A stretch of 64,000 bases of DNA from an uncultured Archangium sp. GTDB taxonomy: Bacteria > Myxococcota > Myxococcia > Myxococcales > Myxococcaceae. This document shows positions 42,656 to 58,192 of this stretch, in pieces. The stretch lies in NCBI GenBank assembly GCA_964459885.1, contig CAYWON010000011.1:3302-67301 (forward strand), written 5' to 3'. Under the pieces are notes generated by a model. The model saw nothing but the letters and a program-made list of their open reading frames with translations. It did not search any database and had not been told where the DNA came from. The translations under genes and the position numbers were made by a program. Position 1 is the stretch's first letter. Each line of letters begins with the position of its first letter.

Positions 42656-42868
42656 GTGCACTTCGGCAAGGCCACGCTCTCTGACCTGCTCGCGATCCCC
42701 GAAGGGGAGCGACGGCACGAGATCATCGACGGTGAGGTGACGCTGAAAGGCGCGGCGACGCCCGGTCACGGCGCGGCGCAGGCAGCTGTCGGAGGAAGTC
42801 TCTGGGGCCCGTTCAGTCGAAAGCCCGGGGGCCCGAACGCGCCGGGTCCTCGTGGCGCAGCGCGCTGA
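42656..42868 (+). pseudogene. truncated Uma2 (DUF820) endonuclease-family remnant
   Basis: About 70 codons from GTG 42656. ATLSDLLAIPEGERRHEIIDGEV...PGHG..Q matches the Uma2 N-terminus, then the frame diverges and stops after RKPGGPN. Full-length members are about 190 aa. Confidence 0.45.
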
Positions 42869-42994
42869 GCGCGGCGAGAAGATCCGCCCGGAGCCGTTCG
42901 ATGCGCTGGAGTTCGAAGTGGCGGTGCTGTTCGGTGACGACCCGCAGGAGTGATCCGTCTGCGGGCGCAGCGTCGTGACGCGCACGCCCCACCT

Positions 42995-43693
42995 CTACAC
43001 AGGTTGGGCGTGCACCTCGATCTCGAACAGCGTCGGCCACCGCTTGCCCGTGATGAACAGGCGCCGCTGCTCGGTGTCCCACGCGATGCCGTTGGTGACG
43101 TCCTGGCTGGGGAACCGGCGGGCGATGCGCGAGACGTCGATGACGGCGGTGACGCAGCCCGACGCGGGGTCGATGCGCACGATGACGTCGCGCTGCCAGA
43201 GGTTGGCCAGCACCTCGCCGTCGACGACGCACAGCGCGTTGAGCGCCCGCACCGGCCAGCCGTCGAGCGTCACCTGCACCCGCCGCTGCTCCGAGAAGTC
43301 GCGCGGGTCGACGAAGCGCAGCACGTCGGTGCCTTCGCTCATGACGAGCGCGTCGCCCAGCCGGGCCAGCCCCCAGCCCTCGCCCGCGTACCGCAGCGTG
43401 CGCGTCGGCTCGAGCGTGTCGACGTCGTAGGCGAAGGCCGCGCCGGTCTGCCACGTCAGCTGGAACAGCTCCGCGCCTACGACGGCGATGCCCTCGCCGA
43501 AGTGCGGCGGCGCCAGCGCGCGCTGATCCAACACGAGGCCGCTGCGGAGATCGACGCGGCGCACCGTCGACGCCCCCACCAACCCCGTGCCCTCGTACAG
43601 CCGGCCGCGCTCCAGGCACAGGCCCTGCGTGAAGGCCGCCGGGTCGTGCGGCCAACGCGCCACCACGCGCGCCTCACACTGCGTCGCCTTCAC
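42995..43693 (-). CDS. glutaminyl-peptide cyclotransferase (beta-propeller type)
   Basis: GTG at 43693, directly abutting the stop of the upstream zinc-ribbon ORF. HDPAAFTQGL...LYEGTG..G.S.VRRVDL..G is the QC signature. No signal peptide is evident from this start. Confidence 0.8.
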   Translation of the reverse strand: MKATQCEARVVARWPHDPAAFTQGLCLERGRLYEGTGLVGASTVRRVDLRSGLVLDQRALAPPHFGEGIAVVGAELFQLTWQTGAAFAYDVDTLEPTRTLRYAGEGWGLARLGDALVMSEGTDVLRFVDPRDFSEQRRVQVTLDGWPVRALNALCVVDGEVLANLWQRDVIVRIDPASGCVTAVIDVSRIARRFPSQDVTNGIAWDTEQRRLFITGKRWPTLFEIEVHAQPV

Positions 43694-44016
43694 GCCGCCC
43701 CTCCCGCGTCGTCGTCGTCGACGTACCAGTCGCGGTGCCGCGAGTAGCGATGGCACTTCAGGCACGCCGTGACCTCCCACTGGTAGTCGCACTTCGGGCA
43801 GCGGCCCTGCGTGTCGAAGGTGTTCCAGCTGTGCCAACAGCCCGGCTTGCAGCACCAGCGATCGCTGGCCCGCGGCACCCACGCACACAGCGGGCAGCGG
43901 ATCTTCCGCGGCCGGTTCAGCAGCTTCTCGAGGTCGACCAGTGGGGTCGCGGGTGGTGCTCCGGGCTTTGTCAGGCAGTGGAGTGGGTGCATGTGCGGCA
44001 TTGTAGGTGTGGCCAC
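43690..44016 (-). CDS. Cys/His/Trp-rich zinc-ribbon protein
   Basis: 108 aa. CPLCAW...CCKPGCWHSW...CPKCDYQW...CLKCH, followed by an acidic tail. Confidence 0.6.
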   Translation of the reverse strand: MATPTMPHMHPLHCLTKPGAPPATPLVDLEKLLNRPRKIRCPLCAWVPRASDRWCCKPGCWHSWNTFDTQGRCPKCDYQWEVTACLKCHRYSRHRDWYVDDDDAGGAA

Positions 44017-44057
44017 CGACAGGTTGGTACGAGGCCCCGGAATTCAATGGGTTGAGA

Positions 44058-44100
44058 CGTCGAAGACTGACGTTGAAGGGTCGAAGACTGACTTTGGAAG
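44058..44100. repeat. tandem 21/22-bp direct repeat (gtcgaagactgacNttNgaagg x2), with degenerate copies to about 44150
   Basis: gtcgaagactgac occurs at 44058-44070 and 44079-44091. Further ggaagg-terminated units follow, including gtcgaagcgcc at 44121. Confidence 0.7.
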
Positions 44101-44193
44101 GTGCTCCGGAGGCGCGGGAAGGTCGAAGCGCCTCGACGGAACGTGGAAGGCATCGAGCGGGGCGTTGAAGCCCACGCTCGACGGGTCAGCGCT

Positions 44194-44865
44194 TCACGCG
44201 GGCACGGTCTTCTTCCTGGGCGAAGCCTTCGAGGGCACGAGGGCGCGGAACAAGGCGACGATCTCGGGCTTGTCGGCGAAGCCGAGCGAGCCTGCGTTGA
44301 TGATGGTGTCGACGGCCTTCTCGATGCGGAGCTGCGCCTGCTTGCGGTCGGCGACGGGGAGCTTCCTGGTGACCTTGGTGGCCTCCTGCGCGGCGTCTGC
44401 CAAAGAGAGCGCGGCGCGGTGGGCGCGGAGCTTGTCGATGTCGGCGCTGAGCAGGCTCGCGGCGCGGGTGACCTCGGGGTGGCGGGTGGCTCCGTCGATG
44501 AAGGCGTCGAGCGCGGTGATGATGGTCTGGAGCTTGTTGGTGGTCGGCCGCAGCGAGAGCCCGAAGGCGGCGCGCGCGTCGTCCTTCGGCGCGGCGCGGG
44601 TCAACGCGCCACGGGTCAACGTGAGGAAGTCGAGCGCGCGGCGGGCGGTGTCGTCCTGGTTGCGGGTGGCTTCACGCAGGGACTCTTTGGCGAGCGACGC
44701 GGCGCTCTGCTTGCCGTCGAAGGTGTCGAGATCGGCCGTGAGCCCGTCGAGCAGCCCGGCGGGCAGACGCGCTTCGATGGTGGCCTTGTGTTTGTTCGCC
44801 AGCTCCAGCGCTCCACGACCCACGCGTGACACGTCGCCCGGCGCCCACTTCGGAGTTGCTGCCAT
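44194..44865 (-). CDS. hypothetical all-helical protein
   Basis: ATG at 44865 with a strong SD (GAGGGGGG) upstream; the track ORF begins at a TTG at 44934. 223 aa. Codon usage looks host-like. No domain recognised. Confidence 0.55.
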   Translation of the reverse strand: MAATPKWAPGDVSRVGRGALELANKHKATIEARLPAGLLDGLTADLDTFDGKQSAASLAKESLREATRNQDDTARRALDFLTLTRGALTRAAPKDDARAAFGLSLRPTTNKLQTIITALDAFIDGATRHPEVTRAASLLSADIDKLRAHRAALSLADAAQEATKVTRKLPVADRKQAQLRIEKAVDTIINAGSLGFADKPEIVALFRALVPSKASPRKKTVPA

Positions 44866-44944
44866 GTGTACCCCCCTCAAGTGCCGCGAGAGTGCGGCGC
44901 ACGGAGGAGACCCGGCCGAGTTGAGGGCCGTCAAGGTGGAGGCC

Positions 44945-45685
44945 TCAAGTTCCCGGGAAGAGGTCGCCCTGCGTGACGCGCGGCGGCCAGAAGACCCCGA
45001 GGATCAGGAAAGTCTGCGGGTGCGCCTGCATGTTGCCGGTGAAGAACAGAGGGTCCTTCTTCGGTCCGCACAGCTCGTCGAAGTACTTGGTCTGCACAGC
45101 GCGAATCGTCGCTTCTTCAGAGTGTCCTCGGCGGTAGCCGCGCCACAGCTCGGCGAGTTCCCAGTCGAGGATCTTCATCTGGTGCGGCTCTTTCGTGCGG
45201 CAGTCGTGGCAGCGGTACCGGTTTGCGAGCTGCTCGTCCGTCCAATCCGGCGTGCTCTCCGGTGCCGCGACAACCTCGAGAACCTCGCGTGGTCGGAAGA
45301 CGCCCAGCGACGTTCCGTTCTGCGTCTGCGCCTCCTGAATCGTGCACATCGACGGCTGAAGAAGTGGGAGCACCACTTCCTTGCGAGCCTTCCACTCCCT
45401 GTCGGTGGAGAGCTCCTCGCCGAGGATCTTGATGCTCTCGGTGATCGGTCGAATCGTCTCGGGGCGAGGGTCGGTCTTCTTCTTGTTCGCCTCGTAGGTG
45501 ACCTCGACCCACTGGTACTTCTTGAAGCGTTGGCTCTCGTCGAGGTCGCGGAAGGGGATCGGATACAGCCGGACCCACTTCTTCTCGTCGGAGATGCCGG
45601 CGATGCACGCCGCCTCGCCAAGGGTGCTGCTGGGGTTCGGGTACGCCTTGACCGTGATCAGCACCTTCTTCTTCGACAACGCCAT
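44945..45685 (-). CDS. hypothetical protein, no recognised domain (partner of the DUF488 fusion gene)
   Basis: 246 aa with a G-rich SD upstream. K/E/W-rich composition and more A/T at third codon positions than flanking genes. Features: KAYPNPSSTLGEAACIAGIS...WVRLYPIPFR and CHDCRT...H. Confidence 0.7.
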   Translation of the reverse strand: MALSKKKVLITVKAYPNPSSTLGEAACIAGISDEKKWVRLYPIPFRDLDESQRFKKYQWVEVTYEANKKKTDPRPETIRPITESIKILGEELSTDREWKARKEVVLPLLQPSMCTIQEAQTQNGTSLGVFRPREVLEVVAAPESTPDWTDEQLANRYRCHDCRTKEPHQMKILDWELAELWRGYRRGHSEEATIRAVQTKYFDELCGPKKDPLFFTGNMQAHPQTFLILGVFWPPRVTQGDLFPGT

Positions 45686-45715
45686 CCCACGCCCCCGTGC
45701 GCGAAGTCGCGCGAG

Positions 45716-46585
45716 CTACAGGTGAACCACGTCGAGTCCCACTCGCTTCGAGATGATGGGCGCCAGTGAGCCGCGGTGGCAATCGTGCGCGTGCGCCTCG
45801 AAGCAGAGCAGCGCCGACGGCCGCTCCAGCATCAGCGCCTCGACGCGTGCCTGGGCGTCGCTCGCTTCAGGGACAATCGTCTTTCGGTAATGCGCGAAGA
45901 GTTCACTGCGCGCGCCGGGCTTCGAGAGGTCGACACGAAGACTCGAAGGAATGCCGAGCTGAGGAACGTGCACGTAGTCGATGCCGACGTTCTTGCAGTG
46001 TCCCTTCAAGACGCCGCCGATGAACCCGTACTTGTTCGAGTACGCGTTCTTTCGAACGTCGACGACGCGTCGAATGCCTTTCTCGAGCAGCTTGTTCAAG
46101 AAGCTGTCGACCGAGCCGCCTTCGTAGCCGCAAGTGTAGATGGCTGGAGGCGCGAGCCGCGGCTTCACAGCCTGACTCTTGCTCCGCGACGCAAACCACG
46201 GGTGCTTCTCGTAGACGCGTTCGATGAGTTCGCTGCGACTGAGGTTGCCCCAGCCTTCGAGCACGGCATCGACGATGGCGCTCGCCTTGCGGGTGAGCTT
46301 GGTCAACGCCGCGTCGACGCGCTCGCGAGACGCGATGGCGACCGAGTCGTCGCTTGCGGTCATCAGGCCGGCGCGGACCAGCTTGTCGAACTCGTTGTAG
46401 GCGGTGAACGAGAAGGGGCCGTATTGGTACGGGAGGAAGTCGTAGAACGGCAGCGCATCGGCCGCGTGGTGTTCGGCGCCTGCGATGAACAGCCACTTCA
46501 CCAGCTTGAGCCGAGTGACCGTGCCGGGCGCGCGGGCAACGAAAGCAAGCTGCATTCGTTGTCGCCCGAAGAGGATTTCACTCAT
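45716..46585 (-). CDS. fusion protein: N-terminal winged-helix/SocA-Panacea (DUF4065)-like region plus C-terminal DUF488
   Basis: 289 aa. The C-terminal 140 aa match DUF488 (YeaO family) landmarks: IYTCGYEG...F...L...GIRRVVDVR, GIDYVHVPQLG and ALLCFEAHAHDCHR. The N-terminal LKLVKWLF...YQYGPFSFTAYNEF resembles Panacea; this is tentative. Confidence 0.75.
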   Translation of the reverse strand: MSEILFGRQRMQLAFVARAPGTVTRLKLVKWLFIAGAEHHAADALPFYDFLPYQYGPFSFTAYNEFDKLVRAGLMTASDDSVAIASRERVDAALTKLTRKASAIVDAVLEGWGNLSRSELIERVYEKHPWFASRSKSQAVKPRLAPPAIYTCGYEGGSVDSFLNKLLEKGIRRVVDVRKNAYSNKYGFIGGVLKGHCKNVGIDYVHVPQLGIPSSLRVDLSKPGARSELFAHYRKTIVPEASDAQARVEALMLERPSALLCFEAHAHDCHRGSLAPIISKRVGLDVVHL

Positions 46586-46593
46586 CGGGAAAA

Positions 46594-46609
46594 GATCTCA
46601 CGCGAGATC
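46594..46609. promoter_or_regulatory. perfect palindrome GATCTC-N4-GAGATC, 9 bp upstream of the DUF488 gene start
   Basis: On the minus strand it reads GATCTCGCGTGAGATC followed by TTTTCCCGATG. It could be an hsdS terminator-like hairpin or an operator/translation-control hairpin. Confidence 0.3.
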
Positions 46610-46700
46610 GTCAGGGTCCAGCCAAGAGGTCCCGAGCGTAGCTGTGCAGCCAGCCAACGGAGTCGACGTCACGGCGGTCCGACACTGGCTTCTGATGCGA

Positions 46701-48119
46701 CTACGTCACGAGTTCGCCGCGGAAGGCCTTCGCGAGCAGCGCGCGTTCGAACGAGTCCACGTTCAGCAGCAGGTCGAATGCGACCATCTTTCCGCCGTTT
46801 GCTCCATCCAGCGTGGACCGCAGACCACGCATGAGTTCGGCTTGCTCGGCAGCAGGCGCAAGTGGAACTGCGCGCGCTCGGATGTCGCTGAGGTTCATTC
46901 GTACGCGGCCAAGTCCGTGGCCAGCGCCAGCCGCACGTGCAAGCGAGCCAGGGCTGTTCAAGCTCCACATCACGAAGTTCCGTGAGATCGCCGCGACAGG
47001 CCGAACCCGGACGCAGTCCGCTTTCACAATCGCTTTGCCGAGCGCAGCCGGAGCTTCGCAACAGCGTCCGACGGGCTCGGCGAGCGCGGACACGATGAGG
47101 TCGCCTGCCACAACCTCATGGCGAATCAGTTGGTCGAACTTCTCGCGTGGAACCCGCGCGAGGTCGCCGTCTTTGAAGACGCCTACGCCGAGGTTGCCGA
47201 GCCTCACGACCACGGGTCCATCACTCACGTAGTCGGCAGACTTCAGATGAGAGCCGAACGGACCATCCACGATTCCGTCCGCCTCGTGCGTGATCGATTC
47301 GAGACTGGTCCACGCCCAACTCGGAGGGAGGTCGGGAAGGTCGGAGGTGTCGACGGGTTCGGGCTCGACGTACTTGGACTTCCACTTGTCGTCCTTCGGC
47401 GACTTGCCCTTGGCCTTCAGCTTCGCGAGTTCGGCGGCTTCCCACTTCTGGCGGCGCTCGATGCGGATGCGCTCGAGGAGCTTCGACGCGGGCTCGACGT
47501 CGGGGTTCTTCTTCCTCCAGTCGGCCGTCAGGTCGCCCCGGAACGCCGCCGCCAACACCGACTGCCGGTACTGCTCCACCAGCGCGGGCACCGCCTCGAG
47601 TTGCTCCCTCGCCGCTCGGGTCAGTACCAGCAATTCGTCGAGCTTCGCCACGATGCGCCGCTGAACATCGAGCGGAGGAATTCCGAGCTCAGTCCCTTCG
47701 AACTTGCCCTTCGTGATGTGTCCGAGCCCGACTCCGCCGTGAGCCTTCTCGATGAAGGTCGAAAGCCGCTGGTTCAGCGCGAAGCGAACGAAGCGCTTGT
47801 CGAGGGCCGCCTCATCGATCTCCACCTTGAAAATATGCTGGTTGAGAACGGCTCGGCCGCCGTTCCAGATGTGTGCTCCGAATGATGTGCCGGGAGTTCC
47901 GGACCACGCGAACAGGAGTTGCCCCGAATCGATGATGTGACGTGGCTCTACCTCGCCGTCGAAGTGATTGAACGGTGCATCCGCATTGTTCAGGTTCTGA
48001 ATTCGAACGATCGGCAGACCCGACCTCGACCAGTCCGTCGGCTTGAACGCGCGCCCGTTCTGGAGCCTGCAGACTTCGCCGACCGTCTTCGTCTCCCAAT
48101 CCGATGGGAAGTCGCTCAT
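46701..48119 (-). CDS. hsdS: type I restriction-modification specificity subunit
   Basis: Start MSDFPSDWE at 48119 overlaps the hsdM stop (ATGA). Two TRD-like halves (NGRAFKP...GLPIVRIQNL and a second copy) are separated by conserved helical spacers. Confidence 0.9.
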   Translation of the reverse strand: MSDFPSDWETKTVGEVCRLQNGRAFKPTDWSRSGLPIVRIQNLNNADAPFNHFDGEVEPRHIIDSGQLLFAWSGTPGTSFGAHIWNGGRAVLNQHIFKVEIDEAALDKRFVRFALNQRLSTFIEKAHGGVGLGHITKGKFEGTELGIPPLDVQRRIVAKLDELLVLTRAAREQLEAVPALVEQYRQSVLAAAFRGDLTADWRKKNPDVEPASKLLERIRIERRQKWEAAELAKLKAKGKSPKDDKWKSKYVEPEPVDTSDLPDLPPSWAWTSLESITHEADGIVDGPFGSHLKSADYVSDGPVVVRLGNLGVGVFKDGDLARVPREKFDQLIRHEVVAGDLIVSALAEPVGRCCEAPAALGKAIVKADCVRVRPVAAISRNFVMWSLNSPGSLARAAGAGHGLGRVRMNLSDIRARAVPLAPAAEQAELMRGLRSTLDGANGGKMVAFDLLLNVDSFERALLAKAFRGELVT

Positions 48120-49555
48120 GCGGACCTCTCCAACTCGGTCACGGCAGCGAGCGCTCCTTCGAGCTTCTCGCGGATCTGCGCGAGCACCACCTCCGGCTCC
48201 GGCAGGTCGTCCGCGTCGGTGTGGCTCTCGTCCTTCAGCCACGCGACGTCGAGGTTGTCGTTGCGCTCCTTGATGGCCTCGCGCGTGAACTTCCGGAAGC
48301 GGCCTTCTTCACCCTGGTCCTTCCGCTTCGACTTCCCGTTCGCGTCTTCGCCGTACGCCGCTCGGAACTCCGCGAAGTGCTCCAACGTGAACGGCGTGCG
48401 CTTGCCGAACGCCGGCATGTTCGCGCGCATGTCGAAGAACCACGTCGCCTTCGTGTTGCCCTTGTCAGTCGCCCCGCGCGTGAAGAACAGCACGTTCGTC
48501 TTCACGCCCTGGGCGTAGAAGATGCCCGTCGGCAGACGCAGCACCGTGTGGAGGTCGCACTTGTCCATCAGGTCGGCGCGAATCTGCCGGCCGACGCCGT
48601 CTTCGAAGAGCACGTTGTCAGGCACCACCACCGCCGCGCGGCCGCCGGGCTTCAGCGCCCGGTACACGTGCTCGATGAACGCCAGCTGCTTGTTGCTGGT
48701 GGGGAACGTGAAGTCGTCGCGCGTGGGGCGCCCACCGCCGGCTTTGTTCCCGAACGGCGGGTTGGTGAGGATGACGTCGGCCTTCGTCTTCGCCAGCTCC
48801 GCGCCCTGCGGTGACAGCGTGTCGCCCGCGCGCAGGTCGCCTTCGATGTCGTGGAGCAGCAGGTTCATCAACGCCAGCCGCCGCGTCTCGTCGACGAGCT
48901 CCATGCCGTAGAACGCCTGGCGTTTCTGGAACTCCTGCTTGCCCGCCGGGAGGTCGAAGAGGTTGTCGGTGTTCGCCTTGATGAAGCGGTCGGCCTCTAT
49001 GAGGAAGCCCGCGGTGCCGGCCGCCGGGTCCTGCACCAGCTCGCCGGGCTGCGGCTTCAAGCACTGCACCATCGCGGTCACCAACGGGCGCGGCGTGAAG
49101 TACTGGCCGGCGCCCGACTTCACTTCGTTGGCGTTCTTCTGGAGCAGCCCTTCGTAGAGATCGCCCAGGTTCTCGCGGTCTTCGCTGAACCAGCTGAGCT
49201 CGTCGAAGTGCCGCACCAGCGCGCCAAGCGTCTTCGGGTGCTTCACGGTGGTCTGCGCGCCCTCGTAGATGTCTTTGACGAGCTTGTTCTTCGACTTGCC
49301 GAGGTCGAGGAGCAGCTGTCGGTAGTGCTCGAGTTGCTCGACGCCCTCGCGTTTGACCAGCGAGTCCCATCGCTGCTTCTCGGGGAGCACGCCGTCTTCG
49401 CGCTTCTGCTCCTTCATCATCTTGAGGAAGAGCAGGTAGGTCAGCTCGGTCACGTACTGGTGGTAGGTGACGCCGTCTTCACGGAGCAGCGTGCACAGGT
49501 TCCAGAGCTTCTGAACGATGTCGGTCGTCGCGGTGGCCATCGGGCGGCGCACCAT
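48116..49555 (-). CDS. hsdM: type I restriction-modification N6-adenine DNA methyltransferase subunit
   Basis: HsdM N-terminal domain (IVQKLWNLCTLLREDG), motif I DPAAGTAGFL and catalytic NPPF (LTNPPFGNK). Start at 49555 (MVRRP) or 49540 (MATATT). Confidence 0.95.
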   Translation of the reverse strand: MVRRPMATATTDIVQKLWNLCTLLREDGVTYHQYVTELTYLLFLKMMKEQKREDGVLPEKQRWDSLVKREGVEQLEHYRQLLLDLGKSKNKLVKDIYEGAQTTVKHPKTLGALVRHFDELSWFSEDRENLGDLYEGLLQKNANEVKSGAGQYFTPRPLVTAMVQCLKPQPGELVQDPAAGTAGFLIEADRFIKANTDNLFDLPAGKQEFQKRQAFYGMELVDETRRLALMNLLLHDIEGDLRAGDTLSPQGAELAKTKADVILTNPPFGNKAGGGRPTRDDFTFPTSNKQLAFIEHVYRALKPGGRAAVVVPDNVLFEDGVGRQIRADLMDKCDLHTVLRLPTGIFYAQGVKTNVLFFTRGATDKGNTKATWFFDMRANMPAFGKRTPFTLEHFAEFRAAYGEDANGKSKRKDQGEEGRFRKFTREAIKERNDNLDVAWLKDESHTDADDLPEPEVVLAQIREKLEGALAAVTELERSA

Positions 49556-49604
49556 AGTCGCCGAGCGTTGGTCTTCGGCGGGGAACGCGCTATGCGGCGG
49601 CCGG

Positions 49605-49985
49605 ATGCCGGGGCCGGTCGACGAGTTGATCAAGGCGGTTGCCGAGGGCGCGCGAAAGGCGGCTCCAGGCGACGGTGCGCTCGTGAAGACGCACATCGCA
49701 CAGGCTCCGTTCAACCGCGAAGTTCGGCGCGAGGATGCCTGGGCCCGACTGGGGTATTCGGTCGCTGGTGCGGCACATCCTGCGCGGCTGGGCGAGACGA
49801 TCTCTGCGACGACCAGCCTCTCGAGCCTCGAGTTTCACACCGCGAAGCGGGTGCTCGACGGCCAATGGGCGCCCCAGACAACGCCCGAGGCGTACGAGGC
49901 TGATTGTCAGCGGGCAGCCCAGATGGCTTACCTCGTCAAGGGGCGCTCCGAGGCGTTCCTCTCGCTGCGACTCAAGCCCGCGTGA
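49605..49985 (+). CDS. hypothetical small protein
   Basis: 126 aa from ATG 49605. The track ORF starts at 49518, which would overlap hsdM. Third-position GC is consistent with coding. The SD is weak and no domain is recognised. Confidence 0.4.
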   Translation: MPGPVDELIKAVAEGARKAAPGDGALVKTHIAQAPFNREVRREDAWARLGYSVAGAAHPARLGETISATTSLSSLEFHTAKRVLDGQWAPQTTPEAYEADCQRAAQMAYLVKGRSEAFLSLRLKPA

Positions 49986-50063: not shown

Positions 50064-50414
50064 ATGAACCTCTCCGCCTACATCGAAGCGCTGGAACGCT
50101 CCGCTAAGAACCTCCCGGGTGTGTTGCTCGACTGGGACTCGCTCGATGAGGAACTCCGCGCGCACTACTCGGAAGCGATGGTGGAGCTGTTGGCTCGCCA
50201 TCAGCAGGCTGACAGAGAAGCGTCGTCTGCCGAGCGCGTGCAACTGGGTCGCGCGTGGAGCGTTTTCATGACTGGTGTCGTCCAGCATGTGTGGGCGATC
50301 GCGAACTTCATGGGCTTCAACCCGCTTGAGCTCGTCGCGCCGTCGTCGGTGGTCGTGGACTCTTTCGAGCCTGCGTCCGGGGCGGCGTCGTCGCCCCTCG
50401 CCATCGCCGCATAG
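50064..50414 (+). CDS. hypothetical small helical protein
   Basis: 116 aa with a good SD (GAAGGGA 6 nt upstream). No domain recognised. Confidence 0.55.
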   Translation: MNLSAYIEALERSAKNLPGVLLDWDSLDEELRAHYSEAMVELLARHQQADREASSAERVQLGRAWSVFMTGVVQHVWAIANFMGFNPLELVAPSSVVVDSFEPASGAASSPLAIAA

Positions 50415-50417
50415 CCC

Positions 50418-50852
50418 ATGCGCATCGTCACGCTCATCGCGGCCGAGGGGGTTGCTGTCGACGTCTTCACGGGACGCGTGTCGGCCTACAACATCGTCGA
50501 CCGGATCTTCGCGCCGACGACACCGGCGCGGTTTCCCCGACTGCATCTGCTCGTGCAGTTCGAGCGCGGCGCTGACGAGCAGGCTGAGCGCTCGTTCCTC
50601 AAGATCGAGCTCCTCGCCCCGAGCGGTGCCGATGTGCTCAACGCGCCGCTTCAAGAAATGACCCTCACCGAGCGCACGCACACGTCGGTGCACCACGCGT
50701 GGAACGTTCATCTTCCCGATGTGGGCGACTACCTGCTGCGGGTGAGCGCTTCGCCCAGCGCTGAAGGCGCGTGGACCGAGATGTCGTCGCGTCTCGTTCC
50801 CGTGGTGCAGACCCAGCACCCGTTGATGCCGGTGCCGGCGCCGTCTCGCTGA
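50418..50852 (+). CDS. hypothetical small beta-rich protein (DUF6941-like, very tentative)
   Basis: 144 aa, beginning 3 nt after the previous stop. The N-terminus MRIVTLIAAEGVAVDVFTGRVSAYNIVDRIF...FP reminds me of DUF6941-type proteins. Confidence 0.5.
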   Translation: MRIVTLIAAEGVAVDVFTGRVSAYNIVDRIFAPTTPARFPRLHLLVQFERGADEQAERSFLKIELLAPSGADVLNAPLQEMTLTERTHTSVHHAWNVHLPDVGDYLLRVSASPSAEGAWTEMSSRLVPVVQTQHPLMPVPAPSR

Positions 50853-50858: not shown

Positions 50859-53573
50859 CTACCAGTACGTGACGCCGAACCGCTCTCCGAGGTTGAAGAG
50901 CTCGCGGTGGGCGTCTTGGTGACCGGGCCACTTTCGCTCGAGCTCTCTGAAGGTGGGCGTGTGCAGCGCCTGCAGATGCAGGTGCAGGAACTCGTGCCAC
51001 AGCAGGAACTTCAACGTGTCCGCCGACACGTCGGGACTGTCGAGCAGTCGGTTGATCATGATGCGCCCCTGGCCGTGGGCATCGCTGGGTTGCCACCTGG
51101 CCCAGCCGTACAAGTTCTTGAGGATGCGGTTGCTCCATTGCGGGCTCACCGACGAGGAGGTCGAGAGGTCAGCTTCGAGAATCGTGCTGCCCTGCCGCAG
51201 CACGTCGGCGAAGAGCGTCGGGAGACTGTGATGTGGGCCGAGCGTCATCTGGTCCTTCGGCCCGGGCTCGAAGACGGGCACTGCACGCGGCACGTGCGTG
51301 GCCTCGTCCGGGTGTTCGAGCTCATAGAGCGCATCGTTCACCGCACTCTGGAACGCACGCGGAGTTGGGTACACCACTCGGGCCAGCGGCGTGTAGCGCT
51401 CGTCGAGCAGCTGTTGCCGTCGCCGTTCGCCGAGGTCCTCGTCGCTGATGATGCGCGCGAGCGCCGCTGGGTCGCACTGCTCGCGTTCTTTCAGCGGTCG
51501 GAACGTCGGCCGTTCGCCGCGCGCGCGAACGTGCTCCAGCGCAGCGCGGAGCTGCTCGGTGCCAGGCGCTGGCGAGTCGCAGTCTGAGAAGAACTCGTCG
51601 AACAGCGCCTCGGCGGTCGCTCGCTCAAGCCGCTCGGCAGAGAGTGAGTAGAGGACCTTGAACAGCTGCTCCCAGCACGGGAGTTGGTGTTGGTACACGG
51701 CGATGGTCTGGCGGACCGGCTCGCCCTCGTCCTCGCGTTCGAGCACGTACCAGCCGTGGTGGAGTGCCTCGAACGCGTCCGCCTCGTGGCCCGGCCCCCG
51801 GAGGCGAATCTCGCGCACCAGCTCGACGACTGCGTCCCAGGGCAGCGCGACGCGGATGGATTCGAGCAAGTCGTCTGCATGGGGCTCGTCGTCGGCTGAA
51901 AGGCGGCCCGCCGGCTCGGCTTCGCTCGGCTCGGTGGGCGCGATGATGTCGGGTACCAAGGCCAGCTGGCCCTGCCAGTCGCGGAATCGTTCCCAGTGGT
52001 CCTCGAACGAGACGATGTACGCGGTGTCCTTTCCGCCGGCCGCGCGCCCACGCAGCGCTCGGCCGATCATCTGGCGCAGCAGAATCTCGCTGTGGGTCGG
52101 CCGCGTGAGGAACACCGTCTGCACGTTGGGGAGGTCGACGCCTTCGGTCACGATCTGCACGTTCACGAGCACGTCGATGCCACCGTCCTTCTCGCGGAAG
52201 CGCTGCAGGATCTCGGTGTTGTCGACGGCGTCGTCGTCGACGCGGTAGCTCGCGACGTACTCCGCCGCGACCTTCTCTTCCTTCAACATGTGCGTCAGCA
52301 ACGCGGCGTGGTCGACGTTGAGCGCGAAGATGAGCGTCTTGCCGTACTTCTCCTTGTTCTGTGTGTAGTGCCCGACGATCTCCCTGTTGCGCGGCACCAT
52401 GGCCGCGATGCGCGCGAGCCACGCCTCGCTCAGCTCGTCGAACCTCGCCATGTTCTCGAGGTCGGCTGGGGTGACGCCGTCCTCGACCTTCGCGCCGGTC
52501 AGCACGGTGATGGGAACCGGGCGGGCGAGGAACCCGCGCTCGATCAGTTCGGTCGTCGAGACCGAGTAGAGGATGCGGTCACCAAAGAGACGGGACAGTG
52601 TGGGCCGCTCGTCCTCGGCGGTGCGCGTCGGTGTCGCGGTCAGGCCGAGCAATCGACCGCTCGCGCCTTCGAAGCGAGCGATGACGTTGCGGTAGCTGCG
52701 CGCGACAGCGTGGTGCGCCTCGTCGATGACGACGAATGACCTCGGGTCCTTCAGCACTGCATCGATGAGGTCGAGGCGCCGAGACACGCTGCCGATCGAG
52801 CTGACGATGACGTCGTCGTGTGGATCGATCTGGGTCGTCGCGCAGTGTTCGCTTGAGACGATGCGTACCCTGAAGCGCTCTTTGGGCGCGGCGTGCGCGG
52901 CGAGCTTGTGGAACTCGCGAGCAGCCTGGTTCAGCAGCTCAGCGCGGTGGGCGAGCCACAGCACGCGGCCGCCTTTGGCGACGACGTGTTCGACCAACCA
53001 TCGAACGGCGGTGAACGTCTTTCCAGAGCCGGTGGGCATCACCAGCATGCCGCGGAAAGAGCCGGAGGCTTGCCCTTGTGCGAGGTGCGCCGAGAGCTTT
53101 TCCCAGGCCGCCTGCTGGTAGTCGTGCGGCGCTCGGTCATCGAGCGGTTGTGCGGCGGGCTTGATGATCGAGAAACGCGGCGTGAACGCAGCCGACGCGG
53201 GCTGGTTGTCGCGGTCTGCGTCTCCGAAGCGGATGAGTGTGTCCAGCAGCATCCGCCGCAGCCGGGACGAGTTTCGGGTGTCGCCGACGAAGCGCGCGGC
53301 CTCTTCAGTCGTGCTGGGCCGTATGTTCGTCGGCCCGAGACCTGCGTCGCGGAGGCGGTCCACGAGCAACGTCGTGCCTGCGTAGGTCGGCAGCCAGAGA
53401 GCCGCGAGCGTCTTCTTGTTCCGACCGACAAACTCCTCGTTCGGTCGTTTGACCTGCTCCGAGAGCCACGCTCTCGCGTCGGCGATGTCGTCGCGCCAGT
53501 CCTTTTCGTTTTGGGCCAGGGCCTTCACGACGGCATCGTCGAAGGCGCTCCAGGAGAAGCGGTACGCGGGCAT
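50859..53573 (-). CDS. SF2 (ResIII/DEAH-type) helicase with a C-terminal YgjP/DUF45-like HExxH metallopeptidase motif
   Basis: 904 aa. MPTGSGKT, VIDEAHH, GLTATP and QMIGRALRG. The C-terminal WHEFLHLHLQALHTPTFRELE can be compared with the YgjP-family HE..HL....H(S/T)P.F pattern. SD AAAGGA. Lies 21 bp downstream of hsdR. Confidence 0.85.
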   Translation of the reverse strand: MPAYRFSWSAFDDAVVKALAQNEKDWRDDIADARAWLSEQVKRPNEEFVGRNKKTLAALWLPTYAGTTLLVDRLRDAGLGPTNIRPSTTEEAARFVGDTRNSSRLRRMLLDTLIRFGDADRDNQPASAAFTPRFSIIKPAAQPLDDRAPHDYQQAAWEKLSAHLAQGQASGSFRGMLVMPTGSGKTFTAVRWLVEHVVAKGGRVLWLAHRAELLNQAAREFHKLAAHAAPKERFRVRIVSSEHCATTQIDPHDDVIVSSIGSVSRRLDLIDAVLKDPRSFVVIDEAHHAVARSYRNVIARFEGASGRLLGLTATPTRTAEDERPTLSRLFGDRILYSVSTTELIERGFLARPVPITVLTGAKVEDGVTPADLENMARFDELSEAWLARIAAMVPRNREIVGHYTQNKEKYGKTLIFALNVDHAALLTHMLKEEKVAAEYVASYRVDDDAVDNTEILQRFREKDGGIDVLVNVQIVTEGVDLPNVQTVFLTRPTHSEILLRQMIGRALRGRAAGGKDTAYIVSFEDHWERFRDWQGQLALVPDIIAPTEPSEAEPAGRLSADDEPHADDLLESIRVALPWDAVVELVREIRLRGPGHEADAFEALHHGWYVLEREDEGEPVRQTIAVYQHQLPCWEQLFKVLYSLSAERLERATAEALFDEFFSDCDSPAPGTEQLRAALEHVRARGERPTFRPLKEREQCDPAALARIISDEDLGERRRQQLLDERYTPLARVVYPTPRAFQSAVNDALYELEHPDEATHVPRAVPVFEPGPKDQMTLGPHHSLPTLFADVLRQGSTILEADLSTSSSVSPQWSNRILKNLYGWARWQPSDAHGQGRIMINRLLDSPDVSADTLKFLLWHEFLHLHLQALHTPTFRELERKWPGHQDAHRELFNLGERFGVTYW

Positions 53574-53594: not shown

Positions 53595-56500
53595 TCAGCC
53601 GGTTTTCCAGATCTCGTCCTGCAGCTCGCCGACGACGTCGGTGAGCTTGCCGTCGAACACCTTGTCGATGCGCTCGAATCCGCCGTTGTCGCGGAAGGCG
53701 CCTTCGTCGAGCAGCGGCCGGTCGACGAGCTCGTTCTCAAGCACCGCCTTCGCGATGCGCTTGAGCCACTGCACCTGCGGGTTGCTCCACTTTCGTGACG
53801 CCAGCACGCGCTGCAACGCCTCGTTCACGCGTTGCTCGTATGGCTTGAGCGGCTCGCCCAGCGCCCCCTGGCGGATGTGCCCGATGATCGACGCGGCGAA
53901 GTCGGCGTTGGTCGTCGCCTTGTTGGCGGCGCGCAGCTGCGTCTCGGAGTAGCCGGCTTGATCCAGCTCGAGCTTCAGCTTCTTCAGCTCGGCGCGCGTG
54001 AGGTCGCGCGGTCGCTGCATGACGGCCTTGAGGGCGGTGACCTTGTTCTCGTTCTCCTTGAGGTAGCGCGAGAACGCGGCGAGGTACTCCTCGGGGCGCT
54101 GGCGGCCCGGCCCGAAGCCCACCGTGACCGAGACGAGCTCGTCGTCGTCATCCGCCACGATGGCGCCGAGCGCCTTCTTCTTCGTGGTGTCGAGCAAGCG
54201 CGTCACCTGCTGATGCGCCGCGAGCCACTTCGCCAACTCGACCGCGGACCCTGACACCAGCGACCGCAGCACCTCGTGAATCGACGCGCCCGCGGCCGCC
54301 TCGAAGCGCTCGGCGTCGGCGCCTTCCGAGAACAGCGCCTTGCGTCGTTGCAGCTTCGCGAGGAACTCGTCGCGCACGTGCTCCGCCGAAATGCCCTGCT
54401 GATGGGCGAGGTCTTCGGCCAGCTGCGCGAACGTGAACGACGGGTTGGCGACGACTGGCTTCATCGTCGTGAATTGCTCCAGCGCCGCGTACAGGTCGAC
54501 TGCGTCGAAGATGCGGAACGATTCCTTTCCAGGGAAGAGTCGCGTCGCGCGGCCCAGCATCTGCTCATAGAGAATTCGGCTGCGCACCCGTCGCAAGAAG
54601 ACGAGGTTGCTGATCGACGGCACGTCGACGCCGGTGGTGAGCAGGTCTACCGTCACCACCACCGACGGCAGTTGCTCGTTTTTGTATCGGCGAAGCAGGC
54701 CACTTGGGTCGTCGCTCTTGCCGGTGATCTTCTTCACCGAGTTCGCGTCGACCTCGCCGTAGCGCTTCTGGAACTCCGCGAGCATCAGCTTCACGACGAG
54801 ATCTGCGTGCTCGTCCGTCGCGCAGAAGATGAGCGTCTTCCCCGGCAGGCTGGGGTCGAGCTGTCGGGCGAGTTCCTCGCAGACGACACGGTTGAAGTTC
54901 TCGGTGATGACCTGGCGATTGAATGACTCGACCTCGAAGTCGACCTCGTCCTCAAGCGTCACGAAGTCGGGCTCTGGGTTGAGCGTGGTGACCCGCTCGC
55001 CGGCCTTGAAGTGAATGCCCTCGGTCGCGAGCTTCGTGGTGATGGTGATGGGCGGGTCGTGGTCGACGAGGAAGCCTTCGACCACTGCCTGCCGGTAGCC
55101 GTACTCGAAGACGGGGCGACCGAAGATCTCAGTGGTGTGGAACGCAGGCGTCGCGGTGAGGCCGACCTTCACCGCGTCGAAGAAGTCGAGCACCCGCCGG
55201 TAGACCGACAGGTACTCGTTCTGGTCGCGGAAGGTGAGCTCGGCTTCCGAGAGGTCTTTGTCGAGCGTGTACCCGCGGTGGCACTCGTCGACGACGATGC
55301 AGTCGTAGTCGTCCACGTGGAGCAACGGCACGTCGCCGGTTCCATCGAAGAGTCTGCGGGCGACGGCCTGCACCGTCGCGAAGTGGAGCCGCGTTTCCGG
55401 ATCGGGCGTGACGTCTTCGAGTTCCTTGATGTTGAAGATGTCGCTGAACTTGCGGGTGCCGTCGACGAACTCACTCTGGAAGGCCGCGGCCGCCTGTTCG
55501 CCGAGCGCGTTGCGGTCGACGAGGAACAGCACGCGGCGGAAGCGGCCGGTCTTCACCAGTCGGTAGATGAGGCCGATGAAGGTGCGCGTTTTCCCGGTGC
55601 CCGTCGCCATCGAGACCAGCACCTGCCGCTTGCCGGCTGCGATGCTGTCTTCCACCGCGCGAATGGCGCCGACCTGGTACGCGCGCAGGCCTGGCAGGTC
55701 CGCGGGTGACTCGTGCTTGAGCCGCTCGGTGGCTGCGTCGATGTCCTGCTTGAGCAGCTCTCGGAGACCGTCAGGTGTGTGCCATGCCGGGAGCGCGCGG
55801 GGCAGGTTGGTCGTCTTTCGTGCGTCGACGAACCAGATGCCCGACTTCGTCGTGAGCTGCTTGAACCAGGGGCGACCGTTCGTCGCGTAGAGGAATGGGA
55901 CGGCGAACTCGCCCCACGGTGCGGCTTCGGCGCGGTTCTCTTCGGGCAGTTCGAGGCCGCGCGCGTACCGCTGCGACTGCTCGAGTGACGCGCTGACGTC
56001 ACGAGCCTGGCGCTTGGCTTCGACGATTCCGACGGCGGTGAGCCCTGCGAAGAGCACGTAGTCAGCGGGGCCATTCTTCGTCGGCCACTCTGCGATCGCG
56101 AGGTTGCGGCCAGCGACCGGACGGGTTCCGTTGCTGTACCGAAGCGTCTGAGAGTCGGCTTCCCACAGGGCCTCGCGGAGCTGCTGGTCGATGATGAGGC
56201 GCGTGTCGGCTTCGTCGATCTGAATCGCCGCGCCCGCGTCGATGAGCTGCGCCGTGAACTTCTGCGTCTCTGCACTGGGTCTGGCCTCGGCTGCAGCGGC
56301 GGCGGCCTGAAGCGTCGCGAGCCGTTGCGCGTCGGCGTCCGCCGCGAGTTGTTCCCACAGCGCCGCGTCGGCCGCGTCCCGCTTCGCGCGCTCCTCGGCG
56401 TCGAGTCGTCGCCGCGACTCTTCAGCCGCGACCGCCTTCGCCGCCTCGACCGAGAGCTTCGCCTCTTCGAGGTGTTTCCGAAGGCGTTCCAGCTCGGCCC

Positions 56501-56954
56501 GAAGTTCCCGGGTTCCGGCGTCAGGGTCGACGGGCGGAACGAAGGGGCCGGGGCTGAACTTCGGCTGCCGGCTGAAGACGCGGTGAAACCAGATCGCGAG
56601 TTCTCGTGCGAGCTTGAGGCACGTCAGCGCGTCGCGGTGCGTGCCGCGGTTCTGGTGCGTCGCTTCGTTGCCGGCACGTCGGATCGCAGTGAAGGCTTCG
56701 TTCGCGTCCGGCGTCAGCGCGCGGGCGCTCTGAAGCCGGCGCACGAGGTCGTTCTGCGGTTCGAGCGGAATGATGGGCAGCCCGAGGTTCGCGGCGGTGC
56801 GTTGTGCCAGCAGTTCACCGAACTGACGCAGCTTGATGAGCGCCGTGACGGGGTCGTTCGCGAAGTACCGCTCGGCGAGGGCGCCGAGGAGAACCAGCTG
56901 CGGATCGTGGGACTGCAGGAAACCGAAATTCGCTGACGTAGGAACCCCGACCAT
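53595..56954 (-). CDS. hsdR: type I restriction endonuclease R subunit with an N-terminal DUF4145 and coiled-coil extension and an EcoEI-type C-terminal domain
   Basis: I chose the start at 56954 (MVGVPTSANFGFL). Nuclease motif ADYVLF...GIVEAKR. Helicase motifs MATGTGKT, VVDECHRG and GLTATP. The C-terminal domain resembles the EcoEI R C-terminal domain. Confidence 0.93.
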   Translation of the reverse strand: MVGVPTSANFGFLQSHDPQLVLLGALAERYFANDPVTALIKLRQFGELLAQRTAANLGLPIIPLEPQNDLVRRLQSARALTPDANEAFTAIRRAGNEATHQNRGTHRDALTCLKLARELAIWFHRVFSRQPKFSPGPFVPPVDPDAGTRELRAELERLRKHLEEAKLSVEAAKAVAAEESRRRLDAEERAKRDAADAALWEQLAADADAQRLATLQAAAAAAEARPSAETQKFTAQLIDAGAAIQIDEADTRLIIDQQLREALWEADSQTLRYSNGTRPVAGRNLAIAEWPTKNGPADYVLFAGLTAVGIVEAKRQARDVSASLEQSQRYARGLELPEENRAEAAPWGEFAVPFLYATNGRPWFKQLTTKSGIWFVDARKTTNLPRALPAWHTPDGLRELLKQDIDAATERLKHESPADLPGLRAYQVGAIRAVEDSIAAGKRQVLVSMATGTGKTRTFIGLIYRLVKTGRFRRVLFLVDRNALGEQAAAAFQSEFVDGTRKFSDIFNIKELEDVTPDPETRLHFATVQAVARRLFDGTGDVPLLHVDDYDCIVVDECHRGYTLDKDLSEAELTFRDQNEYLSVYRRVLDFFDAVKVGLTATPAFHTTEIFGRPVFEYGYRQAVVEGFLVDHDPPITITTKLATEGIHFKAGERVTTLNPEPDFVTLEDEVDFEVESFNRQVITENFNRVVCEELARQLDPSLPGKTLIFCATDEHADLVVKLMLAEFQKRYGEVDANSVKKITGKSDDPSGLLRRYKNEQLPSVVVTVDLLTTGVDVPSISNLVFLRRVRSRILYEQMLGRATRLFPGKESFRIFDAVDLYAALEQFTTMKPVVANPSFTFAQLAEDLAHQQGISAEHVRDEFLAKLQRRKALFSEGADAERFEAAAGASIHEVLRSLVSGSAVELAKWLAAHQQVTRLLDTTKKKALGAIVADDDDELVSVTVGFGPGRQRPEEYLAAFSRYLKENENKVTALKAVMQRPRDLTRAELKKLKLELDQAGYSETQLRAANKATTNADFAASIIGHIRQGALGEPLKPYEQRVNEALQRVLASRKWSNPQVQWLKRIAKAVLENELVDRPLLDEGAFRDNGGFERIDKVFDGKLTDVVGELQDEIWKTG

Positions 56955-57036
56955 TCCGGCGATGAGTGTAACTGCAAACATCGGCGAGGCCGAACTCAGC
57001 GGCGATGGCACGAATGGTGTATCGCTGCGGCCTCAG

Positions 57037-58182
57037 ATGACCGTCGCTTCCTGGATTGAGCTCTCGCAGTCGGCCTACGCCGCCAACGTCGCCACCTTCC
57101 GCAAGATCGCCGCCGGCGCGCGCGTGGGCGTGGTGCTGAAGGGGAACGCCTACGGCCACGGCCTCGTCGAGACGTTGTCGCTCGCGCACGCGTTGGTCGA
57201 CGTTATCTACGTCATCACCCCCAGCGAGGCCGCGGCGATTCGCGCGTGGGAGAAGGCGAACAGCCGACCGCCCCGCGAGGTCCTCGTCATCGGTGCGGTG
57301 TCGGCGCAAGACGTCGTCGACCTCGCGCGGCTGAACGTCAGCGTCGTCGCGGCAGATCGTGGCTTCGACGCCGCGTTGCGTGCGCTCGAGGCGGCGGGGC
57401 TCGAGACCGACGTGCACGTGCACCTCGACACCGGTCTGGGTCGCGAAGGCTTCACCCGCGCCGCACTCGAGCGGGGCGACGCTGATTTCCTGAAGGGCGC
57501 CCGGGTGCGCGGCGTCATGAGCCACTTCGCCAACACCGAAGACGTCACCGAGCAGGACTACGCGCGCACCCAGCTCGCGAACTTCGAAGCGGGCGAGGCG
57601 CTCGTGCGGCAACGCCTCGGTGTCACCGCACTCCAGCGTCACTTCGCCGCGAGCGCGGCGGCGTTGGTGCTGCCTCCCGCGCGACTCGATGTCGTGCGCG
57701 TCGGCATCGCGATGTACGGGCTGTGGCCCTCGGCCGAGACGCGGCTGTCGGCGCGCGTGGTGTTGGGTGAGGTGCCGACCCTCGAGCCGGTCGCGTCGTG
57801 GAAGGCACCCAGCCAGGTCGTGAAGTGGCTGCCGGCGGGCAGCTTCGTTGGCTACGGCTGCACGTACCGTTGCGCCGCTGACACGCGCGTCGCCGTGCTG
57901 CCCGTTGGCTATTGGGACGGCTACCCGCGCCTCGCGTCTGGCAAGGCGCACGTGTTGGTCAACGGCGCCCGCTGTTCTGTCCTCGGCCGCGTCATGATGA
58001 ACCACCTCATCGTCGACGTGACCCACGCGGTGAAGGACGACGCGCCCGTCACGGCGACGCTGCTGGGCCGGGACGGCGACGAGGCCATCTCTGCAGAGAC
58101 GCTCAGCGCCTGGGCCCAGACGATTCACTACGAGACGATGACCCGGGTTGGCGCACATCTGCGCCGTGCCGTCGTGCCCTGA
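57037..58182 (+). CDS. alr: alanine racemase
   Basis: Start MTVASW at 57037. PLP-Lys motif VLKGNAYGHG, plus VRVGIAMYG and GYGCTY. Confidence 0.9.
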   Translation: MTVASWIELSQSAYAANVATFRKIAAGARVGVVLKGNAYGHGLVETLSLAHALVDVIYVITPSEAAAIRAWEKANSRPPREVLVIGAVSAQDVVDLARLNVSVVAADRGFDAALRALEAAGLETDVHVHLDTGLGREGFTRAALERGDADFLKGARVRGVMSHFANTEDVTEQDYARTQLANFEAGEALVRQRLGVTALQRHFAASAAALVLPPARLDVVRVGIAMYGLWPSAETRLSARVVLGEVPTLEPVASWKAPSQVVKWLPAGSFVGYGCTYRCAADTRVAVLPVGYWDGYPRLASGKAHVLVNGARCSVLGRVMMNHLIVDVTHAVKDDAPVTATLLGRDGDEAISAETLSAWAQTIHYETMTRVGAHLRRAVVP

Positions 58183-58192
58183 CCTCTCGGCT

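Follow-up and report, generated by a model that had tools for sequence, protein, structure and literature searches.

Payne, Hughes, Fineran and Jackson (2024; bioRxiv 10.1101/2024.01.29.577857) collected genes embedded in BREX, DISARM and type I restriction-modification (R-M) systems and curated 145 'phage defence candidate' (PDC) systems, which they described as untested. PrrC is cited in that study as almost exclusively embedded in type I R-M, and its Table S8 lists a cassette, CAS_00089 (count 174), with the remark 'Assign as candidate PDC-M19'. No domains, mechanism or phenotype of PDC-M19 are given in the text and supplementary tables of Payne et al. 2024 or in the literature we searched, and a literature search found no mention of PDC-M19 in the texts of other papers. 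Here we describe a cassette that is, with essential certainty, a member of PDC-M19, in a contig of an uncultured Archangium sp. (Myxococcota; assembly GCA_964459885.1, contig CAYWON010000011.1, positions 3,302 to 67,301). We refer to this whole stretch of 64,000 nucleotides as the window, and to the two genes of the cassette as gene A, encoding a fusion of a Panacea-like and a DUF488 domain, and gene B.

Other described systems bear on the two proteins. Stand-alone Panacea domains neutralise toxins directly, and a sensory role has been proposed for Panacea in multidomain proteins (Ernits et al. 2023, PMC10440598); our search found no mention of DUF488 in either of two papers on Panacea-based toxin-antitoxin pairs, or PanAT (Kurata et al. 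2022, Ernits et al. 2023). DarTG pairs a toxin that ADP-ribosylates single-stranded DNA (ssDNA) with a macrodomain antitoxin carrying a toxin-binding C-terminal domain. DUF488 proteins are widespread as single genes, for example YeaO of Escherichia coli, and to our knowledge they have no established function. The searched literature yielded almost only incidental annotations of DUF488, and an established function was not found there either.

The assignment to PDC-M19 follows from matches of both proteins to the PDC-M19A and PDC-M19B models of PADLOC-DB v2 and from the adjacency of their genes on the same strand. Gene A matches PDLC04505 (PDC-M19A) at E=9.8e-73, with residues 6-283 aligned to model positions 2-286 of 294. 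Gene B matches PDLC04508 (PDC-M19B) at E=6.6e-58, in two stretches because 24 residues have been deleted from the window protein (see below). A preliminary description of this DNA, made from its letters alone, had called the pair a 'candidate undescribed system', which the existing entries in PADLOC-DB v2 and in Table S8 of Payne et al. 2024 contradict. Its account of the arrangement was accurate: two co-directional genes of 289 and 246 aa follow hsdS, with spacers of 115 and 30 bp, and the motifs it listed are present. Both proteins also match PHROG families of unknown function (phrog_25907 for gene B, E=4e-46). They have many homologues in a collection of 5.8 billion proteins (205 for gene A and 343 for gene B), and they are therefore genuine genes and not chance open reading frames (ORFs) of a GC-rich genome. 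Beyond the bare catalogue entry, we find that the conserved partner of gene B is the DUF488 domain and not Panacea, the Panacea-like domain being an add-on in one sub-lineage, and we propose as a hypothesis that gene B is a tandem OB-like (oligonucleotide/oligosaccharide-binding-like) protein with a Cys/His cluster. Our preferred reading, held tentatively and with a little less than even confidence, is that the cassette is a mobile two-protein, nucleic-acid-directed conflict module with a core of DUF488 enzyme and gene B, probably disabled in this genome.

To assess the pairing of the two genes we scanned 185,579 species, each represented by one genome, with a motif search that confirmed 188 relatives of gene B. 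Eighty loci were examined, from Planctomycetota, Actinomycetota, Nitrospirota, Omnitrophota, Myxococcota, Verrucomicrobiota, Bacillota and one archaeon. A DUF488 gene adjoins gene B in 77 of the 80: it lies upstream and co-directional in 55, convergent in 18, and downstream on the same strand in 4. No DUF488 was detected at the remaining three, two of which have gene B at a contig edge (one with a DUF488 fragment at that edge), so that L004 is the only true exception. Starting from gene A, the next gene was a gene B relative in all seven metagenomic loci (L092-95 and L097-99; E 2e-67 to 4e-114). The co-occurrence of gene B with DUF488 across genomes, proposed earlier as a check, was thus borne out from both sides. 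In one pair among loci L004-L041 (neighbour set of alignment A5), a second DUF488 paralogue of the 'inactive' N3i subclade adjoins (PF22752, E=8e-34).

The partners of gene B rarely carry the N-terminal domain seen in the window. A Panacea-like domain was present in only two of the 77 DUF488 partners of the genome loci, and in the close relative L001; in the others the match spans the DUF488 region only, and the six with gene calls are 141-196 aa long (four of them 141-154 aa). The conserved core is therefore DUF488 plus gene B, and the Panacea-like domain is an accessory of one sub-lineage. A Panacea-based antitoxin as the core logic of the cassette, as first suggested, is not supported by this comparison despite the 205-member family of fusion proteins; a Panacea-bearing protein is not the conserved partner of a putative toxin here.

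Gene A itself is well preserved. At least 120 proteins of its fusion family span at least 90% of the query, and the window protein keeps all 22 invariant columns of a 54-sequence family alignment. It appears intact and is still under purifying selection, its codon differences from the L001 orthologue comprising 26 synonymous and 11 non-synonymous changes. That it ends in a DUF488 module was confirmed at 75.8 bits against PF04343 (cutoff 22.2; model positions 2-118 of 121), and the residues invariant among 54 homologues (D176 and R178, and C261, E263, C269, H270 and R271 in the pattern LLCFE ... CHR) are all kept. Gene A is related to the DUF488-N3a subclade (PF22751) without being a clear member: it scores 18 bits (cutoff 27), and 39 of 54 relatives match at E<=0.01 (best 1e-7). 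The deposited gene A protein (P0125, 279 aa) begins 10 codons 3' of the ATG at 46585 (window 46556-46585); we favour the 289-aa reading because an N-terminal 'RQR' motif is conserved in the family.

The likeness of the N-terminal domain to Panacea, which the preliminary description had offered with low confidence, is real over the length of PF13274 (model positions 3-112 of 113, E=7.7e-5) and falls just under the threshold at 24.0 bits (cutoff 25.7). The match to the NCBIfam model SocA_antitoxin (E=8e-4) lies far under its cutoff. The closest stand-alone homologue of the domain, P0121 (43% identity), carries PF13274, and 16 of 54 fusion-family members match PF13274 at E<=0.01. We treat the domain as a divergent, near-threshold Panacea candidate, an assignment that both findings favour, as does its match to the C-terminal positions 428-547 of PDLC03184, the PADLOC Specificity_I model, at E=4.8e-12.

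An AlphaFold2 (AF2) model of gene A reached a pLDDT (predicted local distance difference test) of 94.9. Its best match in the PDB by Foldseek is a 187-aa chain of the Mycobacterium tuberculosis DarTG complex 7yk3 (E=7.5e-4, prob 1.00), an entry that we take, from its release date, to be the structure of Deep et al. 2023. To judge by its title, that work reportedly describes inhibition of DarT by the C-terminal domain of DarG through ssDNA mimicry. The match may reflect a likeness to that C-terminal domain, the Foldseek output not reporting which part of gene A was aligned. MarR-type winged helices rank next and probably fall on the N-terminal domain. They are followed by protein tyrosine phosphatase (PTP)-fold phosphatases and tetrapyrrole-methylase-like domains (prob 0.8-0.97, E 0.03-0.1), which would fall on DUF488. 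Burroughs and Aravind reportedly defined, in 2023, a clade of RapZ-C, DUF488 and DUF4326 and placed DUF488 in the rhodanese-phosphatase superfamily, with which the phosphatase-like neighbours are in accord. The same group assigns the related DUF4326 to a rhodanese-phosphatase clade that likely processes ribose-linked terminal phosphates (PMC9503650). When the PDB was searched by sequence, neither gene A nor the profiles of genes A and B retrieved a meaningful match; hemocyanin, L13 and MbnC came up through short chance similarities.

An alternative reading of the cassette is a PanAT-like addiction module, in which gene B would be a toxin and gene A its antitoxin, acting by Panacea-like binding, by enzymatic reversal through DUF488, or by both, with stabilisation of the mobile element that carries them as the main role. 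The Panacea-like domain, the top structural match to a DarTG chain and the occurrence of a tight bicistronic pair on plasmids and prophages all speak for such a module. We nevertheless think it unlikely: at the genome loci, 75 of the 77 DUF488 genes next to gene B are without this domain, the convergent arrangement of 18 of 80 loci is atypical of toxin-antitoxin operons, gene B persists without DUF488 in a marine lineage (95 contigs), and Foldseek finds no known toxin fold that gene B resembles.

Gene B belongs to a large family, with 3,108 representative clusters at 50% identity in an exhaustive profile search, for which we found no literature. As the preliminary description had noted, it matches no family that can be named: there is no Pfam or NCBIfam match, and the matching profiles are the PADLOC and PHROG models. 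Members are about 265 aa long, the 246 aa in the window is not the native length, and no multi-domain fusions were obvious among the top 150 representatives, all of 169-330 aa. Taken together, the profile and structure searches recommended at the outset returned the PDC-M19 models, PF04343 and weak OB-fold neighbours, and left Panacea below threshold and gene B outside Pfam and NCBIfam.

The structure of gene B was modelled with AF2 on the intact orthologue P0002 with 54 sequences (pLDDT 94.5, pTM 0.90). In the model, five strands form an N-terminal beta unit, helices connect it to a second beta unit, and a loop and a strand pair interrupt the latter. Foldseek found no PDB match at E<=1e-3 (best E=2.4e-3). 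The top 23 PDB matches are almost all of one kind, namely RPA, CST, HIN-200, Teb1, TEBP-alpha, LEF-3 and Thermus SSB, with POT1 lower, and in BFVD the match is baculovirus LEF-3 (E=4e-4, prob 0.98-1.0). From this model we infer, with moderate confidence, that gene B is a tandem OB-fold protein. Its invariant residues include many basic and aromatic and several acidic positions (in orthologue numbering K13, R39, K56, R74, R101, E24 and a D-W-E motif), and most members share a Cys/Cys/Cys/His set (C27, C114, C183 and H192) that could form a zinc site. Some OB domains of RPA carry a zinc-binding Cys/His insertion. Two enzymatic identities, a DarT-like ADP-ribosyltransferase and a PD-(D/E)xK nuclease, were considered for gene B and rejected, neither having fold or profile support.

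The copy of gene B in the window is damaged, a feature that the preliminary description missed and that is invisible without comparison with homologues. Twenty-four residues (KLGQRDLFITREKRPLEKIPFSFSY in the closest orthologue), including nearly invariant Q, P and Y positions, are absent here and present in 27 of 27 aligned homologues. The DNA alignment with the syntenic locus L001 shows a clean in-frame loss of 72 bp, which removes the equivalent of orthologue residues 156-179 and changes K155 to N. In the model, the loss shortens a helix by its final residue and takes away a loop and the first half of the core strand 175-183 that leads into the Cys183 ligand. A look-up of genomic contexts had no record of the exact window protein.

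The position of the deletion is informative about its origin. Across the aligned flanks (42848-47669), blastn identity to L001 is 95.8% on the side of hsdS, gene A and the 5' part of gene B, and 99.6% on the side of the 3' part of gene B, the following 246-aa ORF and the cyclase gene; the switch in divergence falls exactly on the junction at 45222/45223, and the 92 codons 3' of it show zero differences from L001. This coincidence suggests that the deletion arose at an imprecise recombination joint. A collapse during assembly was considered and is improbable, the junction showing no repeated k-mer and only 1 nt of microhomology. With 24 conserved residues gone, half of a core beta-strand among them, gene B is probably defective and the local cassette probably non-functional through it; this genome's copy is thus unsuited for experiments. 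Loss of function in gene B beside an intact gene A is the typical decay pattern of a toxin gene, and adds to the points in favour of an addiction module.

The cassette is carried by mobile elements of several kinds. Gene B was found on 27 plasmids, 13 of them conjugative, and related metagenome assemblies contain the same cassette in three different contexts, two of them within a single assembly. In the temperate Gordonia phage Nymphadora (NC_031061), gp43 is a gene B relative (E=1e-76). Convergent with it is gp42 (L096, 5819-6271), a DUF488 protein without a fused domain (E=7e-29) whose sequence includes the motif LLCFERDHAECHR. The two genes are found immediately downstream of the immunity repressor, with the integrase close by, an arrangement that recurs in six other records representing four further related phages. 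The phage gene B runs in the same direction as the repressor gene and begins at the repressor's stop codon, and is therefore probably expressed in lysogens, which speaks against a PanAT-like toxin. In the CarolAnn paper, Nymphadora serves only as a target phage. The annotation of gp42 as 'HipA toxin, toxin-antitoxin system?' looks wrong for what is a stand-alone DUF488 protein.

Defence and mobility genes adjoin the cassette at a number of loci. A complete type I R-M system lies beside gene B in L085-87, a type IIG-like R-M system adjoins in L090/91, inside a prophage, and a Type ISP enzyme and a phospholipase D (PLD) protein adjoin the pair in L092. SAVED and patatin genes with transposases adjoin it in L093, a PLD-SNF2 helicase and a DNA methylase in L094, and IS91 and integrase genes adjoin in L082. 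In the window and in L001 the pair directly follows hsdS. Overall, R-M systems of type I, IIG or ISP stand beside gene B or the pair in L004/L085-87, L019, L072, L080, L090 and L092. These associations, and the match of the gene A N-terminus to the C-terminal end of the PADLOC HsdS model, would suit an accessory that, like PrrC or RloC, works together with the adjacent type I R-M system, one triggered when restriction is blocked or modulating HsdMS. Most loci by far are without an R-M gene in their vicinity, however, and where one is present its type varies and no specific partner is conserved, so such an accessory seems to us very improbable. Obligate functional coupling to type I R-M was rejected, most loci being without R-M.

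To place these loci in proportion, we surveyed at 39 loci the two closest ORFs to either side of the pair (156 ORFs). Strong residence in defence islands was rejected, the survey showing no such signal. Its low rate of defence neighbours (given below) fits a point made by Payne et al. 2024, who remark on a weaker association of embedded candidates with other defence systems. The position within a restriction island was first taken as a hint of defence; the pair does recur beside R-M and on mobile elements, but a defence neighbour is the exception.

The survey also bears on whether the pair takes part in conflict at all. A housekeeping or stress function in processing or repairing nucleic-acid ends, with an OB-fold binder and a DUF488 enzyme and no role in conflict with phages or plasmids, would agree with the ordinary metabolic and informational genes that flank most of the 39 loci, as well as L084, L097 and L099, and with the general occurrence of DUF488 as single genes. 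It agrees poorly with a distribution as patchy and sparse as the scan found, with the presence of the pair in phage immunity cassettes, conjugative plasmids and prophages and beside transposases and integrases, with the finding of one cassette in three contexts, and with its embedding in defence systems as reported by Payne et al. 2024. We consider a pure housekeeping role improbable.

We return to the conflict module as our preferred reading. Gene B would bind ssDNA or DNA ends of an invading or replicating element. DUF488 would be a Cys/His/Arg enzyme with a phosphatase-like fold, and the target of its phosphate or sugar-phosphate chemistry would be that nucleic acid or a nucleotide signal. 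Where the Panacea-like domain has been added, as in the sub-lineage of the window, it would gate the pair as a sensor or inhibitor and would not be the main partner. The parts of this reading differ in strength: a role in defence or conflict stands perhaps at even odds, and the particular division of labour between gene B and DUF488, which we infer, is more doubtful than not by a clear measure. A narrower version is quite improbable but would have consequences. In it, reversible chemistry like that of DarTG would operate on nucleic acid: OB-fold gene B would engage and perhaps modify the ssDNA of a replicating invader, a phosphate or sugar-phosphate modification of it would be made or undone by DUF488, and in the fusion sub-lineage the domain resembling Panacea and the C-terminal part of DarG would gate the OB protein, possibly by DNA mimicry. 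If true, the widespread DUF488 family would thereby gain a first function open to experiment.

Several observations weigh against a conflict module of this kind. The 156 surveyed ORFs are mostly unrelated housekeeping genes; a handful encode integrases, transposases or R-M components, two are other PDC candidates, and a defence gene is among the four nearest ORFs in only roughly 10-15% of the 39 loci. A later study left out PDC systems 'because they are unvalidated'. The structural matches behind the proposed functions are weak, both for DUF488 (E 0.03-0.1) and for gene B (TM 0.2-0.35; best E=2.4e-3 in the PDB and 4e-4 in BFVD). One gene B sub-lineage lacks at least C183 and H192, so that the putative metal site is not universal, and with its many invariant acidic and polar residues gene B could itself be an enzyme and not a passive binder. 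Finally, a lineage of marine Deltaproteobacteria metagenome-assembled genomes (L004 and L085-L087, 95 contigs) has an intact gene B with no DUF488 gene or remnant; 47-aa ORFs flank gene B there, and a complete type I R-M system, with a DUF5655 gene inside it, directly adjoins.

PDC-M19 offers a tractable entry point to the DUF488 and gene B families, because the two are near-obligately paired, occur in a temperate-phage immunity cassette and recur beside R-M systems.

The features of the locus are collected in Table 1. On the minus strand the island runs hsdR, a 904-aa superfamily 2 (SF2) helicase, hsdM, hsdS, gene A, gene B and a third ORF, with two plus-strand genes between the helicase and hsdM, and it lies between the core genes for alanine racemase and glutamine cyclotransferase. 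By PADLOC and Pfam the type I R-M system is complete, with hsdR, hsdM and hsdS all present. The true start of hsdS is probably near 48119. The spacer between hsdS and gene A showed no convincing promoter or terminator consensus, in a scan that is uninformative in a GC-rich organism.

Table 1. Features of the PDC-M19 cassette and the adjoining type I R-M genes, in window coordinates
Feature	Position	Strand	Evidence or remark
Gene A, 289 aa	46585..45716	minus	Panacea-like domain + DUF488 fusion; matches PADLOC PDC-M19A
Panacea-like (SocA/DUF4065-like) domain of gene A, residues 30-130	46196..46498	minus	motif FYDFxPYxYGPFSF conserved
DUF488 domain of gene A, residues 159-275	45761..46111	minus	PF04343 E=5.9e-21
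Gene B, 246 aa	45685..44945	minus	matches PADLOC PDC-M19B; internally deleted allele
72-bp in-frame deletion junction in gene B	45222..45223	minus	DNA and protein alignments against L001
Third co-directional ORF, 246 aa as listed	44194..44934	minus	begins 10 bp after gene B
Spacer between hsdS and gene A, 115 bp	46586..46700	minus	read from sequence
hsdS, type I specificity subunit	46701..48242	minus	Pfam Methylase_S E=2.6e-16; PADLOC Specificity_I E=1.3e-64
hsdM, type I methyltransferase	48116..49714	minus	N6_Mtase E=3.1e-76; PADLOC MTase_I E=3.7e-212
hsdR, type I restriction subunit	53595..57011	minus	PADLOC REase_I E=2.5e-253; Pfam EcoEI_R_C, ResIII, DUF4145

The third ORF is of uncertain membership in the cassette. 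It is kept only in the close relative L001 (E=1e-138), where it is called at 223 aa, and nothing in Pfam, PADLOC, NCBIfam or PHROG matches it. Among the cassettes of Payne et al. 2024 is a rare variant with three genes (FAM_02799>>FAM_02993>>FAM_02906, count 2), to which this ORF possibly corresponds. In composition, the pair has a GC content of 0.63 against 0.68 for the window, and the GC content at third codon positions (GC3) is 0.82 and 0.86 in the two genes against 0.84-0.95 in neighbouring and core genes. The combined fraction of K, E and W is 0.19 in gene B, a clear enrichment, and 0.12 in gene A. The suggestion that both genes are compositionally foreign accordingly holds as a modest shift in GC and GC3 and, for amino acid usage, clearly for gene B and not for gene A.

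Other genes of the window deserve mention in their own right. The SF2 helicase (50859-53573, minus strand), between hsdR and hsdM, has ResIII, DEAD and Helicase_C domains and weak matches to EcoAI-R and RadD-like proteins; an HExxH motif (WHEFLHLH) at its C-terminus suggests a fused metallopeptidase-like domain, and by the logic of embedding it is a defence candidate itself. The two small plus-strand genes (within 50064-50852) encode a 116-aa ORF without family and a DUF6941 protein (E=4.7e-9). HsdR bears, beside its canonical type I R core, an N-terminal extension with DUF4145 (E=2e-7) and a match to the PADLOC candidate PDC-M16A (E=3e-25, residues 26-218). One part of hsdS has no blastn match in L001 (357-865), a relative that is otherwise 96-99% identical, which points to a swapped target-recognition domain and hence to different R-M specificities in the two strains. 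Unrelated to the cassette, two large tandem genes (58148-62036, plus strand) encode epidermal growth factor (EGF) and calcium-binding EGF domains, which are unusual for bacteria; EGF-domain proteins are known from Myxococcota.

Set against the systems introduced above, the window pair is closest to catalogued PDC-M19, sharing full-length matches of both proteins, the order A then B, and a place beside type I R-M that accords with the 'guilt-by-embedding' rationale. It differs in the 24-residue deletion of gene B and in its position, which is behind hsdS at the 3' border of the R-M genes and not between them. A weaker likeness links gene A to another PADLOC candidate, PDC-M45: its DUF488 domain matches PDC-M45C (E=6e-11) and PDC-M45B (E=3.5e-8), and DUF488 thus recurs among embedded defence candidates. 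Those scores are much weaker than that for PDC-M19A, and PDC-M45 is listed as a three-family cassette with other family identifiers.

With PanAT (Kurata et al. 2022, Ernits et al. 2023) the cassette shares the Panacea pattern at the N-terminus of gene A and the form of a two-gene module on mobile DNA, and the sensor role proposed for Panacea in multidomain PanA fits a fused accessory role in gene A. In contrast to PanAT, the Pfam score of gene A lies under the cutoff, the domain is absent from most DUF488 partners, and the conserved partner is a DUF488 enzyme domain. The resemblance to DarTG is one of architecture: an enzymatic and a partner-binding domain would stand in one protein, the partner is predicted to engage ssDNA, and gene A matches the 7yk3 chain. 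However, gene B lacks an ADP-ribosyltransferase fold and gene A has DUF488 in place of a macrodomain; neither an ADP-ribosyltransferase nor a macro domain was found in genes A and B by Pfam, by PADLOC or among the listed Foldseek matches.

For gene B, the tandem OB-fold DNA binders (RPA, CST, LEF-3, HIN-200 and POT1/TEBP) are the only consistent structural neighbours of its model. They show no sequence similarity to it, the matches reach TM 0.2-0.35 and E 4e-4 or worse, and the invariant acidic residues of gene B are unusual for a pure binder. PrrC and RloC, lastly, provide the precedent of genes that are not part of R-M yet are physically joined to a type I operon; the cassette, by contrast, has no ABC (ATP-binding cassette)-ATPase or anticodon-nuclease domain, and most PDC-M19 copies do not lie beside R-M.

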